DNA of 64,000 nt from a virus. Lineage: Duplodnaviria > Caudoviricetes. The notes under the pieces are model-generated. The model ran no database searches, was not told the DNA's origin, and worked only from the letters and a program-made list of their open reading frames with translations. The DNA is taken from positions 1 to 64,000 of the IMG/VR virus record IMGVR_UViG_2908369612_000002. One strand, written 5' to 3'. A program made the position numbers and the translations under genes. Positions within the stretch are counted from its first letter, which is position 1. Each line of letters opens with the position of its first letter. Of the stretch, positions 5,202-61,588 are shown piece after piece.

Positions 5202-5252
5202 ATATCTGCTCCTTTCTCATAAAAGACCGATTTTATTCAGTTCCTATTTGCA

Positions 5253-44762: not shown

Positions 44763-44878
44763 AAAACGCCCACTTTCTTATATACTTTCTTATATTTCAC
44801 TTTTAAGCAACGATATGAATTACATTAAGAACACCCCCTTAACTCAATTAAAAAATTACTTTTATTTAGACATACAAG

Positions 44879-45022
44879 TTAAATCCAAGACACAATACTA
44901 CCGCATTCTAAATGCACGTGTTCCCAATCTCCTTCCCAAGGCCCTTCTACCAAGTCAACCTCATAATCAACTTCATCTTTTTCGATTACTTTTTTACATT
45001 CGTTGCAGAAGCAGGTAAACAT
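44879..45022 (-). CDS. 47-aa acidic zinc-binding mini-protein
   Basis: MFTCFCNECKKVIEKDEVDYEVDLVEGPWEGDWEHVHLECGSIVSWI, RBS GAGGAGG. Confidence 0.65.
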   Translation of the reverse strand: MFTCFCNECKKVIEKDEVDYEVDLVEGPWEGDWEHVHLECGSIVSWI

Positions 45023-45055
45023 TTTCACTCCTCCTCTTTCTGTAAAATATCGTTT

Positions 45056-45328
45056 TTATTCAGTTTCTTTTCTTACCCATTTTCTAACCTTCATTTCTTT
45101 TAACTCCACTTCATAACAATCCACTTGATCTTCAAATTCCCAAGGGCTCTCATATTGGCTTTCAGTGGCGCCCTTGCTATAGAATGTTTCAAAAAAGCGT
45201 CCTTGATATGGAAATACAATTCTATAGTGAACACTCCACCTAGACGTGTCAGTGATTTCTTCCAAAAGTGAGGATTCCGGCAGCCCCAATTCATTTAGCA
45301 TGTAGTCCTTGTCCAATTTAATTTTCAC
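45056..45328 (-). CDS. Acidic 90-aa phage protein coupled to gad1
   Basis: ORF overlaps the gad1 stop; RW...VF...Y..GATE.Q..PW motif. Confidence 0.7.
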   Translation of the reverse strand: MKIKLDKDYMLNELGLPESSLLEEITDTSRWSVHYRIVFPYQGRFFETFYSKGATESQYESPWEFEDQVDCYEVELKEMKVRKWVRKETE

Positions 45329-46205
45329 TTAAGATAACCCCTCTTCCTTCGCAGCATTTGCATTCGACCAAAGGCTCATTGATTTTATCCATTAGATCGT
45401 CTAAAAAATTCTTAATATTACTCTTTAAATCTTCAACATCTTTTCCACTAAACGGTTCTACAATTGGGTAACTCTGATAGGCTTCAGGTGCAACCTTGTA
45501 AATCTCAACCTCTCGCTTTGTTTGAAATCTTTTTTCAAGTTTAGGCTTTCTCCGTTTGTACATTGCATTAAGATCAACTACATACTCGTGAGGCTTGTAA
45601 AGTTCCAAAACCTTTACCACAGTAAAACAAAAATCATAATCACTTGTGATTCTTGCAAATTTAGGGTTTATATTGGCTTTAATATGGTTTCTAATAATTT
45701 TATAGCTTTCCGCTCGAGACAAGTAACACGGCTTTGTTTCAAGAAGCATTGGATGCGTTTGAATTCTATCCAGTAGGTTATATTTCAAGTTGAAATTTTG
45801 ACTTTGCATCTTAAGTTCCCCGTTAACTTCTTCAATAATGTTCATTTCAAACTCAATCTTTTGATTCTGTTGTGGGACTTCTTCAAATTTCAATTCATAT
45901 AGACCCTTCACTTCATAGTATTCATTGTCTTCACCTATGTAAGAAGCATAAATTACTTTTGGAGTTAATTCAGATTCCTGGAACCCCTCTTTCAATTCAT
46001 ATCTATGATTAATTTTTTTAGCCGGCATTCGCTTTTCAATAACACTTGGCTCCTTCACCAGCTTAAACCAGTCTGATTTATACGTTGCAGTTGCTCGTTC
46101 CCCATCGAAAAGCAATCCTTCTAATTGACTATGAAAATAGCTACTACCTTGAACATTGTCAGACACCAAAAAACAGTTATTTGTTTTAATACCAATCAGC
46201 TTCAT
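45318..46205 (-). CDS. gad1: Gabija anti-defence protein Gad1
   Basis: 295 aa MKLIGIKT.NCFLVSDN...ARITSDYDFC...ECKCC.GRGVIL, close to phi3T Gad1 as I recall it. Confidence 0.88.
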   Translation of the reverse strand: MKLIGIKTNNCFLVSDNVQGSSYFHSQLEGLLFDGERATATYKSDWFKLVKEPSVIEKRMPAKKINHRYELKEGFQESELTPKVIYASYIGEDNEYYEVKGLYELKFEEVPQQNQKIEFEMNIIEEVNGELKMQSQNFNLKYNLLDRIQTHPMLLETKPCYLSRAESYKIIRNHIKANINPKFARITSDYDFCFTVVKVLELYKPHEYVVDLNAMYKRRKPKLEKRFQTKREVEIYKVAPEAYQSYPIVEPFSGKDVEDLKSNIKNFLDDLMDKINEPLVECKCCEGRGVILSEN

Positions 46206-46258
46206 CATAAATCCCCTTTATTGTTTTATTTCCATCACTATAAAATCTCTATTTAGAT

Positions 46259-47452
46259 TTAATTGGCACTTATGTATTCTTTCCATTCATCTTTCGAAAC
46301 TTCTCTAATTACATGGCATGCTGCGGCCTCAACTTTACCACTATCCGCATCTACAAAATCCTTTTCTTTAATCTTAACCTCAATAAGTACTCCGTCTTCC
46401 TTACCATAGTAAGTTGATTGTTCGATCGCTGCTTTTTCATTAAAAAATAACCTTCCGCTGTTCGACCAACTATCTATTACTCCTTCTGCTTTAGCTTCTT
46501 CTCCAATCACATACTCAAAGTTCTTGTCATAGAAGCTCGTCAATTTTCCGTTCTGTTTTCTTACAAATTTATAGAAATTAGTTTTATCAAAGAAATCCTT
46601 TGTATCTAATTTAATTTCAGTACATGGCGCTGATACAGATTCTTTTAGAAACCCATCAAGACCAATTCTGTAATGATCATCATTAATCTTCAGCGTCAAA
46701 ACTGGACTCTTATTAATGTCGTTTAAAAGATCGTCTAAGTCATTAAACTCTAAATTAACCGGCTCTTTAAAGTAGTCTTCGTCTAAAACCATGTCAGCAA
46801 TTTTGTCTACAGCTTCTCGTAGGTTAAAGTCTTTTTCTTCTTCGTCTTCGAACAATTTGTCATAGTTTATCCCATACATACCTCCCATTTGATCTTTCAA
46901 TTCTTCATATGTATTAATGGTTAAGTCCATGCATGTTAGCACAATACGAATGAATTCTGGCTTAGAAATTGTGTATTCTTTATCTGTGTATTTTTGCACT
47001 CTTAACAATGAGACAATTGGAAAAGCAGTTTGGCTATTAAACTTTAAAATTCTCTGCGAGTTATGTTTCAAAAAATCTTCATGTAGAGTAAAAGCTTCGG
47101 TCTTAAAATCAAAAGCTCCCATGCAGACTGTAAAATCAAATGTATTGAAAATTGACTCAGCATCAGAGAAAAATTTAAAGTGGATCATTTGTAGCTTTAG
47201 TCCTTTTTTGATAAACATCGTGGCTTTTTTAGTGTGTGAGGTTACATAGACATTGCTATTCCAACACTTTTCTAAGAATGAACATGCTTTTTTATCACTT
47301 CTAAAATAGATATCCACATCATTTATCTCTTTATTATTAAATAGACTTGTAATTGTCCCACCTGCAATAATAGCTTCATTCCTTTTAAGTGCTTCAACTA
47401 ACTCTTCACCTAAATATGAGTACAGTTTATTCTTTTCAAATTGATAACTCAT
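46259..47452 (-). CDS. gad2: Nucleotidyltransferase-fold protein, probably Gad2 (copy 1)
   Basis: IAGG...NDVDIYF pol-beta-type NTase motif and FDFTVC; about 400 aa; directly upstream of gad1. Confidence 0.72.
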   Translation of the reverse strand: MSYQFEKNKLYSYLGEELVEALKRNEAIIAGGTITSLFNNKEINDVDIYFRSDKKACSFLEKCWNSNVYVTSHTKKATMFIKKGLKLQMIHFKFFSDAESIFNTFDFTVCMGAFDFKTEAFTLHEDFLKHNSQRILKFNSQTAFPIVSLLRVQKYTDKEYTISKPEFIRIVLTCMDLTINTYEELKDQMGGMYGINYDKLFEDEEEKDFNLREAVDKIADMVLDEDYFKEPVNLEFNDLDDLLNDINKSPVLTLKINDDHYRIGLDGFLKESVSAPCTEIKLDTKDFFDKTNFYKFVRKQNGKLTSFYDKNFEYVIGEEAKAEGVIDSWSNSGRLFFNEKAAIEQSTYYGKEDGVLIEVKIKEKDFVDADSGKVEAAACHVIREVSKDEWKEYISAN

Positions 47453-47505
47453 CAAAATTCCCCTTTTTAATTTTATTTTTATCTTTATAAAATCTCTGTT
47501 TAGAT

Positions 47506-48699
47506 TTAATTGGCACTTATGTATTCTTTCCATTCATCTTTCGAAACTTCTCTAATTACATGGCATGCTGCGGCCTCAACTTTACCACTATCCGCATCTA
47601 CAAAATCCTTTTCTTTAATCTTAACCTCAATAAGTACTCCGTCTTCCTTACCATAGTAAGTTGATTGTTCGATCGCTGCTTTTTCATTAAAAAATAACCT
47701 TCCGCTGTTCGACCAACTATCTATTACTCCTTCTGCTTTAGCTTCTTCTCCAATCACATACTCAAAGTTCTTGTCATAGAAGCTCGTCAATTTTCCGTTC
47801 TGTTTTCTTACAAATTTATAGAAATTAGTTTTATCAAAGAAATCCTTTGTATCTAATTTAATTTCAGTACATGGCGCTGATACAGATTCTTTTAGAAACC
47901 CATCAAGACCAATTCTGTAATGATCATCATTAATCTTCAGCGTCAAAACTGGACTCTTATTAATGTCGTTTAAAAGATCGTCTAAGTCATTAAACTCTAA
48001 ATTAACCGGCTCTTTAAAGTAGTCTTCGTCTAAAACCATGTCAGCAATTTTGTCTACAGCTTCTCGTAGGTTAAAGTCTTTTTCTTCTTCGTCTTCGAAC
48101 AATTTGTCATAGTTTATCCCATACATACCTCCCATTTGATCTTTCAATTCTTCATATGTATTAATGGTTAAGTCCATGCATGTTAGCACAATACGAATGA
48201 ATTCTGGCTTAGAAATTGTGTATTCTTTATCTGTGTATTTTTGCACTCTTAACAATGAGACAATTGGAAAAGCAGTTTGGCTATTAAACTTTAAAATTCT
48301 CTGCGAGTTATGTTTCAAAAAATCTTCATGTAGAGTAAAAGCTTCGGTCTTAAAATCAAAAGCTCCCATGCAGACTGTAAAATCAAATGTATTGAAAATT
48401 GACTCAGCATCAGAGAAAAATTTAAAGTGGATCATTTGTAGCTTTAGTCCTTTTTTGATAAACATCGTGGCTTTTTTAGTGTGTGAGGTTACATAGACAT
48501 TGCTATTCCAACACTTTTCTAAGAATGAACATGCTTTTTTATCACTTCTAAAATAGATATCCACATCATTTATCTCTTTATTATTAAATAGACTTGTAAT
48601 TGTCCCACCTGCAATAATAGCTTCATTCCTTTTAAGTGCTTCAACTAACTCTTCACCTAAATATGAGTACAGTTTATTCTTTTCAAATTGATAACTCAT
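47506..48699 (-). CDS. gad2: Nucleotidyltransferase-fold protein, probably Gad2 (copy 2)
   Basis: Translation identical to copy 1. Confidence 0.72.
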   Translation of the reverse strand: MSYQFEKNKLYSYLGEELVEALKRNEAIIAGGTITSLFNNKEINDVDIYFRSDKKACSFLEKCWNSNVYVTSHTKKATMFIKKGLKLQMIHFKFFSDAESIFNTFDFTVCMGAFDFKTEAFTLHEDFLKHNSQRILKFNSQTAFPIVSLLRVQKYTDKEYTISKPEFIRIVLTCMDLTINTYEELKDQMGGMYGINYDKLFEDEEEKDFNLREAVDKIADMVLDEDYFKEPVNLEFNDLDDLLNDINKSPVLTLKINDDHYRIGLDGFLKESVSAPCTEIKLDTKDFFDKTNFYKFVRKQNGKLTSFYDKNFEYVIGEEAKAEGVIDSWSNSGRLFFNEKAAIEQSTYYGKEDGVLIEVKIKEKDFVDADSGKVEAAACHVIREVSKDEWKEYISAN

Positions 48700-48785
48700 C
48701 AAAATTCCCCTTTTTAATTTTATTTTTATCTTTATAAAATCTCTGTTTTAATTAGATTTTTTAATTACCTCTTCTAATTTTATAT

Positions 48786-48980
48786 TTATCCAACCAAATC
48801 AATTATGTAAGTCTCATACATGTCATCCCAATAAGGATCTGTTCTTGCTATGTACTTCTTTGTTCTTCCATTCTCCTCAATCTTAAAGGTTTGCCCCTTT
48901 TGGATATTAGTAAACTTTTTCTTTCTCCAGATTCCTCTAATCAACACTTCAACTTCTTTAACATCAACTGTTCGCTGCAT
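48786..48980 (-). CDS. YoqX-like protein
   Basis: [26 protein letters not shown]. Confidence 0.6.
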
Positions 48981-49133
48981 CTCATTCCTCCTTTTTGATT
49001 TTCGTATATCAAGCCTGGAGATAACTATTCTCTTTAGAATGACAGCAAAATCGAATCCCATTAAGTACCACTGCCATTTTGCTTTATATATCACGTTTGC
49101 TTAGCTATTATGTTGTAAGTAGGAGGTGATATT

Positions 49134-51983: not shown

Positions 51984-52199
51984 TTAAGCTAAATATTTCT
52001 TCTTATGCCGTCTTCTATGTACAAAATCAAATGCGATATCAGCTTTTGCTGGTTCCTTCACCTCTGCTACTCGCTCCGTAACAACAATCACTTGGCCATT
52101 TTCCTGGCGATCAATGCTCTGAACTGAATATCCTTTAGCAGCGTAATACTCTCCTATAATTTCATCAACCTGGTTGCTATGCAGATTCATCTTCATCAC
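51984..52199 (-). CDS. YoqN-like protein
   Basis: 71-aa ORF with RBS GGAGG. Confidence 0.55.
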   Translation of the reverse strand: MMKMNLHSNQVDEIIGEYYAAKGYSVQSIDRQENGQVIVVTERVAEVKEPAKADIAFDFVHRRRHKKKYLA

Positions 52200-52403
52200 T
52201 AATATAACCTCCGCTTATTTTATTTTTATTCTATATTTTTTATGATTCCATCCTATAATCCATCTCTCCATTTGCCTTCTCATCTATCACGACATTAACC
52301 GACACACAATTTCCATATATATGGGAGTAATTTCGCTATTTCCCTATCCGCAAAAACCATATAATGTAATTGCAAGAAAAAATTATAAGAATGGGGGATT
52401 TAC

Positions 52404-60507: not shown

Positions 60508-61588
60508 TCAATAGTCATTTGATTCCGATAAGAATTTAAGGAATTTCTTTAGTGCCACCGGTTCTGTATTTTCAAAATAAGTGATAAAATCCTCTTTGCT
60601 TGCTTCGTATAAGGGCTGATATCAATTTCTTCATCCATAGTTACACCAGCTGAGTTAGTAATATCACTCCTTTTGCTCATATACCTCTCGGTAGTTGAAA
60701 CACTACTGTGATTTCCCTGTTCCCTTGCTGCCAATAGATCGTGGCCAGTATGCTCATAAACATAATCAATACCAACGCCTTTAAACGAATGAAATTTCAA
60801 GTCTCTTTCTGGAGGGATACCCAGCCTCTCTTTTGAACGCTTTAAAGAGTCTCTTACTGATTGTTCAGAAAGTCCTTTAAAGACATAGTCTGTTTCGAGC
60901 GAGTTCTCTTCTCTTAGTTGCGACAGCTCTTCGTAAAACACCTGGTTTATACCCGTTGTAACTACTCTGGATCCTTTATCAATAACTGTTACTACATAAT
61001 GCCCTGTGAGAGCATCATGTTCAAAATCACACCATCTAATTCTTAAAAGAGCATTTAAACGAAAAGAAGTTCTAGTTGCTGCCTTTACAAAAAGCTTTTT
61101 CATCAAAGGTTTTTGTCGTTCATTTATAAATAAATCTTCAGCTATTAAGTCTGCCTCTTCTTTGTTTGTTCTGCCCAGTTTCTATCTATTGTTTTCAACT
61201 TTCCTACAGTATCAAACACACTTAAATCTACATATTCTTTATAATCATGATTAAGGTATTTGTAAAGCATTTTAACAGCAGTTAGTTTTCTTTTAATGGT
61301 TTTGTTTACGAGCCCTTCACTTTGAAGATGTTTGATGTAACTAGTCAATTCACTTTTCGAAATTACTAAATCATTTTCAGTTAAATGTTCTATTTCTTTT
61401 CCTTTTAGAGTTCGAAAGAAGTTTTTTATATCTCCAGTATAATTCTTTCTTGTGTTGGATATACTTGTTGCATCTTGCGAAAGATACTTTGAATTCCCTG
61501 AGCTGCTGGCTATATCCTTACTGTAGAGATAGCTCATAATGTCATTAAATACATTATAATTCTTTATTGATTTAACTTCTGCGTTCAA
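60508..61588 (-). pseudogene. yopP: Tyrosine-recombinase-fold SroD (YopP), split by two -1 frameshifts (about 61175 and 60614)
   Basis: SAM-like N-domain; TSFR, FHSFK, GNHSS..TTERY motifs; restoring 2 nt gives 360 aa. Confidence 0.82.

Follow-up and report, generated by a model that had tools for sequence, protein, structure and literature searches.

A tandem duplication of gad2 in an SPbeta-like prophage, most likely formed between two similar gene leaders

Introduction

How does a prophage come to carry two identical copies of one anti-defence gene side by side, and does the short site at which the copies meet have a part in the process? The question is raised by gad2, a Gabija anti-defence gene, which lies twice in the IMG/VR virus record IMGVR_UViG_2908369612_000002. 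The DNA analysed here, referred to as the window, is the first 64 kb (positions 1 to 64,000) of this record, which is 140,743 nucleotides (nt) long and consists of provirus only. This record is assigned to the SPbeta group of Bacillus phages. Matches to the locus occur in 24 phage records, every one of a Bacillus phage, and the six examined more closely are classed as Spbetavirus.

In SPbeta-like phages, gad1 or gad2 is reported to occupy one dedicated locus, and Gad2 is described as a predicted nucleotidyltransferase-like enzyme (Yirmiya et al., bioRxiv 10.1101/2023.05.01.538930). According to the same preprint, inhibition of Gabija was found for the gad2 of phage SPbetaL7 and for a Brevibacillus homologue, and the knock-out of gad2 makes SPbetaL7 sensitive to Gabija.

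We read the structure in the window as a recent tandem duplication (segmental amplification) of the complete gad2 expression unit, driven by homology, in an SPbeta-like prophage, and give this reading a probability of roughly 0.7. Most likely, two similar gene leaders became misaligned during recombination or copying, and no dedicated cassette recombinase took part. An earlier interpretation of the letters of this DNA (the sequence-only reading) had seen in the repeat what looked like a cassette event, in keeping with strand exchange at the edge of a 6-bp overlap.

Structure of the repeat and its junction

The repeated unit, its bounding sites and the homology around them lie as follows (a strand is given for genes).

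46252-47498: duplicated unit 1, 1247 nt; positions 46252-47501 are exactly identical to 47499-48748
47499-48745: duplicated unit 2, 1247 nt; exactly identical to unit 1
46202-46254: left homology tract, 53 nt; gad1 start codon, ribosome-binding region, leader and left site
46241-46256: left site TAAAA-TCTCTA-TTTAG; left arm, spacer, and an outer flank in place of the right arm
47449-47501: middle (junction) tract; leader of gad2 copy 1 and hybrid site, right-type at 10 of 10 informative positions
47488-47503: hybrid site TAAAA-TCTCTG-TTTAG, as read in the sequence
48696-48748: right homology tract; leader of gad2 copy 2 and left part of the right site
48735-48750: right site TAAAA-TCTCTG-TTTTA; a complete copy of a family-wide palindrome, one of 26 exact sites in the window

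The genes concerned are three.

45318-46208, minus strand: gad1 (Gabija anti-defence 1), 296 amino acids; Pfam PF25705 Gad1, E 4.5e-146, profile positions 1-292 of 293
46259-47455, minus strand: gad2 copy 1, 398 amino acids, an intact open frame; 100% identical to copy 2
47506-48702, minus strand: gad2 copy 2, 398 amino acids, intact; 383 of 397 residues (96%) identical to the annotated Gad2 of phage SPbetaL6

The gad2 units are two identical copies arranged head to tail, and the same 50-nt leader precedes each gad2 gene. At a period of 1247 nt, the longest exact run matches 46252-47501 with 47499-48748, which is 1250 nt, or one unit plus the 3-nt TTT. Immediately before this run there is a single mismatch (A at 46251 against G at 47498), preceded by 12 matching nucleotides. 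A repeat search of the window returned the same spacing of 1247 nt, in agreement with the unit length given by the sequence-only reading. Tandem Repeats Finder, which is limited to periods of 500 or less and cannot reach a 1247-nt repeat, gave no rows. An exact repeat of 1.25 kb cannot have arisen by chance. Comparison of the 140,743-nt record with itself revealed no other near-exact long repeat, the only other pairs being two at 74% identity.

The three sites, at 46241, 47488 and 48735, read TAAAATCTCTATTTAG, TAAAATCTCTGTTTAG and TAAAATCTCTGTTTTA, as had been noted before, and the spacers of the two outer ones (TCTCTA and TCTCTG) do agree at five of six positions. The earlier interpretation took TTTAG for an arm of the site. 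In fact these letters begin the outer flank TTTAGAT, a conserved stretch usually found just behind the TTTTA arm. The right arm is missing from the left and middle sites, which are 5 nt short of the full pattern TTTTA-TTTAGAT, while the right site is complete. The frame TAAAA-N6-TTTAG occurs at just two sites in the record, the left and the middle one.

The homology between the two ends of the unit is much longer than the sites. Each 53-nt tract runs from a start codon through the ribosome-binding region to the site, and ends in TATAAAATCTCT[A/G]TTT. The left and right tracts are identical at 43 of 53 positions (81%), which leaves 10 informative positions; in the repeat search, the leader repeat was recorded at 84% identity over 63 nt (family D2). 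The middle tract carries the right-hand letter at all 10 informative positions and turns left-type after the TTT at 47499-47501. The resulting hybrid junction, ...TCTCTGTTTAGATTT..., is unique in the record. Thus the middle site is indeed a hybrid, as first proposed, and the placement of the crossover within 3 nt also stands, in the TTT to the right of the A/G position, provided that the junction formed in a single event. The supporting argument does not: the homology had been taken for a 12-mer within which slippage would have produced TCTCTA, whereas the homology is the 53-nt leader tract, and copying of the whole tract before the switch yields G. The argument from slippage fails because the switch need not fall inside the longest perfect block.

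The locus in related phages

The immediate neighbour of the gad genes helps to place the same slot in other genomes.

48786-49094, minus strand: yoqX-like open reading frame (ORF), upstream of the gad genes; 48735-49017 is homologous to the yoqX region of SPbeta

The assignment of the duplicated gene to gad2 is based on homology to the Gad2 of SPbetaL6 together with its position in the same slot beside a yoqX-like gene. Its product matched no Pfam or NCBIfam family, and a sequence search against solved structures gave 0 matches. The gad1 region has about 89% nucleotide identity to the gad1 regions of phi3T, SPbetaL4 and BUCT083.

The occupancy of the slot varies among relatives. SPbeta has neither gad gene; between its yoqY and yoqX there is one site only, which reads TAAAATATCGTTTTTA and continues as TCTAGAT. 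SPbetaL4 and phi3T carry gad1 only, and SPbetaL6, Goe11 and an IMG/VR locus (L009) carry gad2 only. In BUCT083, gad1 is followed by two small ORFs and then gad2. A further IMG/VR locus (L010) has gad1 directly followed by one gad2, and is 93% identical across window positions 44832-47501. Relatives with one gad2 between the equivalent sites and relatives without gad2 therefore both exist, two states for which the sequence-only reading had proposed to look. The sites of L010 are TAAAA-CCTTTT-TTTAG on the left and TAAAA-TCTCTG-TTTTA on the right. The shortened frame of the left site predates the duplication, because L010 shares the TAAAA-N6-TTTAG frame.

Sequencing runs were also compared: of 24 candidate runs, 20 contain part of the stretch, and the contigs of four (X1-X4) were aligned to the locus, where parts that the contigs do not cover carry no information. 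The best run, X1, contains 0.57 of the sampled words. Its contig is gapless over 45043-47501 and then joins position 48770; since the alignment jumps from 47501 to 48770, this contig represents one gad2 copy. Contigs of X2, X3 and X4 contain joints with gad1 only. No run resembling the source was present among the 24, and none of X1-X4 is at least 99% identical over the locus, although one small piece from X2 does reach at least 99% identity.

BUCT083 and SPbetaL4 have a near-identical leader with its site upstream of their gad1; in SPbetaL6, L009 and L010 it precedes gad2. The 53-nt tract is a leader common to the anti-Gabija slot.

Two further observations concern the arrangement of genes. 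In the window, three anti-Gabija genes stand in a row at 45318-48702 (gad1, gad2, gad2). The combination of gad1 with one gad2 is present in BUCT083, in L010 and in the X1 contig.

Origin of the duplication

The proposed ancestor would have had one copy of gad2 flanked by paralogous leaders, that of gad1 on the left and its own on the right. Misalignment of these two leader tracts would fuse one unit's end with the start of its neighbour. Two routes are conceivable. In the first, a nascent strand would have finished copying the right tract and then paired anew with the left one, where 15 of its last 16 nucleotides would pair, and more upstream. In the second, annealing or unequal exchange would have occurred between sister or concatemer copies; a single strand from an annealed heteroduplex, once separated by replication, would likewise yield the junction. 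The junction has kept every right-hand marker, including the G, and the join lies in the last shared TTT. No recombinase is needed, because a template switch or strand annealing at the far edge of the homology gives exactly the observed pattern.

The product would be two identical gad2 genes beside gad1, each with its own ribosome-binding leader, which presumably doubles the dose of the anti-Gabija protein. Selection by Gabija might have favoured such a state. The structure is expected to be unstable, because a perfect direct repeat of 1.25 kb invites homologous recombination; it could collapse again by this route, and would then be one state of a gene accordion. The 'gene accordion' of poxviruses is a related form of segmental amplification.

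Several points weigh against this origin. The evidence for two copies, and for the G at 47498, is the assembly itself. Exact scans for the left/middle junction gave 0 loci in the viral, genome and metagenome contig collections. With crossovers spread evenly along the tract, few joins would be expected in its last 3 nt; given that the join does lie there, a mechanism that acts at the end of the homology, such as a template switch or annealing, would be required. Finally, a G-T mismatch situated 4 nt from the re-paired 3' end could be removed by proofreading, which would leave an A at the junction and not the observed G. Scans for the window-type 3' flank of gad2 gave 0 occurrences in viral and metagenome contigs, and a looser pattern matched nine loci, of which eight are unrelated chance matches and one is the L010 contig.

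A deletion in SPbetaL7 was considered as a mirror event and rejected. The gad2 knock-out of this phage is reported as a spontaneous, Cas13a-selected deletion of 1249 bp (bioRxiv 10.1101/2023.05.01.538930). The deletion (L016, positions 109505-110753 of the SPbetaL7 record) is close in size to the 1247-nt unit. It does not run from motif to motif: of its reported ends, one falls 6 nt outside the right-type motif and the other lies within gad2, 12 nt from the 3' end of the gene, and the two share no microhomology.

Alternative explanations

One alternative is that the repeat is an assembly artefact or has the wrong copy number, so that the true molecule has one copy, is a mixture, or has more than two copies, the assembler having traversed a loop. 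Because the units are 100% identical, short reads could not count the copies. A single N stands at position 65094 of the record, beyond the window, and points to a draft assembly. No run with the stretch at 99% identity or more was found, and the best run, X1, shows one copy. However, an assembler cannot write a junction that no read carries, and the hybrid junction is found nowhere else in the record. Assemblers usually collapse tandem repeats such as these rather than expand them, and there are no other duplicated blocks in the record. We therefore regard an artefact as unlikely.

The second alternative is a history in two steps, in which exchange took place anywhere in a repeat, TATAAAATCTCTGTTT or longer, that was perfect at that time, with a later G-to-A change, or a partial conversion, of the left site. 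Phages with gad1 only have TCTCTG as the spacer upstream of this gene, so that the left site may originally have had a G. The gad1 leader of the window is also the most diverged among those compared, and the T and A runs at the locus show small indels between relatives. Nevertheless, a substitution would be needed at exactly position 46251, while 1250 nt of repeat show none, and in L010, which has one copy, the left spacer (CCTTTT) is already unlike the right one. This history is improbable too.

The remaining alternatives involve the TAAAA-N6-TTTTA motif, of which the right site is a complete copy. In the broader version, the motif is a recombinogenic boundary of modules, bound or nicked by a phage protein (for example, one with a tyrosine-recombinase fold) in addition to being a regulatory mark; SPbeta-like phages would acquire, drop and multiply counter-defence cassettes by means of it, with the doubling of gad2 as a recent product. 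In the narrower version, a phage recombinase binds the TAAAA and TTTTA arms, strands are exchanged at the spacer's 6-bp edge-to-edge boundary with one arm, and cassettes bounded by motifs are thereby inserted, excised or doubled. The motif is real and specific: at the N6 spacing the record has 38 copies, whereas each of the other spacings between N0 and N14 gives 0-5. When SPbetaL6 is compared with SPbeta, its gad2 unit is seen to be inserted between two copies of the motif. The makeup of the junction, with left arm and spacer from one parent and the right side from the other, is compatible with the chemistry of tyrosine recombinases, and the record encodes three candidate enzymes.

In the record, not adjoining the locus: large serine recombinase (Resolvase match)
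In the record, not adjoining the locus: 273-amino-acid tyrosine-recombinase-family protein (Phage_integrase family), annotated xerC-like in Goe phages
60549-61106 and 61145-61588, minus strand: homologue of SPbeta yopP (Phage_integrase family), split into two ORFs in different frames, of 147 and 185 amino acids

None of the three adjoins the gad locus and none has been tied to the motif. In SPbeta, yopP is one coding sequence of 1077 nt, annotated as a site-specific integrase, whereas its homologue in the record is split into two frames.

The comparisons of motifs and indels were made between the record and four relatives by BLAST, which makes five genomes in all. A homology end lies at the edge of 17 of the 38 motif sites. 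When these ends are grouped into clusters, 13 of 211 clusters are no more than 5 nt from a motif; positions drawn at random give 0.7%, or 4.4% if drawn from intergenic DNA. A homology end is more frequent in intergenic gaps that carry a motif than in those without one (20 of 31 against 42 of 121, p 0.004). The contrast is weaker in gaps of matched size (10 of 17 against 19 of 65, p 0.04), and fades to 8 of 14 against 13 of 37 (p 0.2) within the early region, the first 72 kb, where gap size is matched as well. The homology ends sit at the outer edges of the motif, as is to be expected for a sequence that the sites have in common. Overall, an association of about this size would be expected of an intergenic element.

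Of 39 clean indels in the five genomes, none is bounded by an exact motif on both sides, seven are so on one side, and 32 have no motif at either end. Events whose flanks have diverged escape this count; the gad2 of SPbetaL6 compared with SPbeta, which lies between two motifs, is an example. The motif is not a general boundary of indels. The spacers of the 38 exact motifs all differ from one another, a poor fit for an overlap-dependent recombinase acting among the sites. Furthermore, the left and middle sites lack the right arm and conservative exchange between complete sites would not yield them, no recombinase gene adjoins the locus, and the sharing extends over the whole 53-nt tract, well beyond the site. 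The strand exchange at the edge of a 6-bp overlap that had first been suggested is thus not borne out by the homology, the arms, the spacers or the indels. We consider the motif as a recombinogenic boundary very unlikely to be behind the doubling, and site-specific exchange at its spacer is the least probable explanation of all.

The intercistronic palindrome

The motif itself poses a separate question, which is probably more interesting than the duplication. The window contains 26 copies, where 1.02 would be expected (for example, at 5220, 7989, 12186, 25174, 45043, 48735 and 54243). Each of SPbeta, phi3T, BUCT083 and SPbetaL6 has 30-43 copies, SPbeta having 34. The outer flanks extend the motif to a palindrome of about 28 bp; in the window, the 26 exact sites share the consensus TT-y-A-g-A-t behind the TTTTA arm. 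In the record, 33 of 38 copies are intergenic. They typically lie 8-35 nt upstream of the start of the next gene, and in about ten cases the TAA of the arm is the stop codon of the preceding gene.

Scans of the three sites at the gad locus gave no match to a sigma70-like promoter or to a terminator, and no stable hairpin (fold z-scores from -1.24 to +0.71), so that a sigma70-type promoter, an intrinsic terminator and a stable RNA hairpin were all set aside. The motif was also considered as a promoter for YonO, but the relevant paper leaves that promoter undefined, with one start upstream of yonK. An identity with SPBRE was rejected as well: the palindrome annotated in SPbeta reads TTGTAATGCATTACAA, of which there are 0 copies in the record. 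No mention of the motif was found in two SPbeta papers that were searched for it, with the 1999 genome paper outside that search. As a guess, made with low confidence, the motif might be the binding site of a dimeric phage protein that punctuates early operons.

Comparison with known systems

The closest parallels come from T-even phages. In laboratory-evolved T4, the counter-defence gene tifA was amplified in tandem (dmd-tifA, against toxIN; eLife 2022, PMC9391042), and recombination of T4 between homologies of 2-10 bp is cited in the same article. In T6, amplification promoted by SegB has been described (Nat Commun 2026, PMC13096335). The gad2 doubling resembles these cases in its head-to-tail units, each holding a complete anti-defence gene with its expression signals, in a junction at short homology, and in its expected reversibility. 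Identical head-to-tail units, a complete gene with its leader and a junction at short homology, the marks of segmental amplification, are all found at the gad2 locus. The differences are of several kinds. The T-even cases described in these reports are lytic, were selected in the laboratory and reached many copies, whereas the present case is a two-copy state in the record of a natural temperate Bacillus prophage. The homology tract of gad2 is longer than those reported there (53 nt, 81% identical, derived from paralogous leaders). The gad2 doubling is known from its sequence. We read it as the equivalent, in nature, of the segmental amplifications that counter-defence genes undergo in T-even phages, and so as an event of a kind already known.

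If reads confirm the structure, it would provide a natural example, in a temperate prophage, of tandem counter-defence amplification through short homology, which has so far been seen mainly in laboratory-evolved T-even phages. It would also mean that SPbeta-like phages can accumulate several genes in their anti-Gabija slot (gad1 and two copies of gad2), with the shared leader of the slot supplying the homology. The dosage of gad2 and the stability of the repeat can be tested directly in ordinary experiments with phage and Bacillus subtilis.

The locus agrees with the anti-Gabija locus of Yirmiya et al. (bioRxiv 10.1101/2023.05.01.538930) in its slot between yoqY-like and yoqX-like genes, its leader, and gad1 or gad2 as occupants. 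The preprint's main account has either gad1 or gad2 per phage, in contrast to gad1 plus two gad2 here; its supplementary tables of homologues may list such cases.

Modular shuffling in T4-type phages involves PeSL cassettes, in which a short motif likewise lies between small genes of a variable early region and at some module boundaries (Genome Biol Evol 2010, PMC2839356). As described there, PeSL combines a sigma70-like promoter with a terminator stem-loop. The sites at the gad locus match neither and form no stable hairpin, and the motif does not generally bound indels.

Complete copies of the motif resemble core sites of the loxP, dif and attC type in having 5-nt inverted arms around a 6-nt spacer. 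The apparent differences are very short arms made of A and T only, a different spacer at every copy and, at the left and middle sites, a single arm; nor was a linked active recombinase found.

A repeated intergenic palindrome in SPbeta itself is SPBRE, the operator of MrpR (YopR), and the protein that binds it has a tyrosine-recombinase fold (NAR 2023, PMC10516654). Its sequence differs from the motif, since the 16-bp 'palindrome' upstream of SPbeta yopM is TTGTAATGCATTACAA; that this annotated palindrome is SPBRE we infer from the list of bound promoters in PMC10516654. Ten ChAP-seq peaks were found for SPBRE, with nine peak sequences used in the motif search (PMC10516654), compared with 34 copies of the motif in SPbeta.

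Neighbouring features

To the right of the gad2 units, on the side of the yoqX-like ORF and beyond it, lies a gene for an ATP-dependent DNA ligase. At 49017-49053, between the yoqX-like gene and the ligase, the record lacks yoqW (an SOS response-associated peptidase gene of about 690 nt), with about 33 nt between the flanks, and no TAAAA-N6-TTTTA motif is present at this deletion point. In SPbeta, SPbetaL4, SPbetaL6, Goe11, BUCT083 and run X1, yoqW is found in this position; it is shorter in phi3T.

Further along the window, positions 52186-52237 are a dispersed short repeat, with several scattered matches in each related genome (in SPbeta near 132.8 kb; in phi3T near 111.5 and 125.1 kb).

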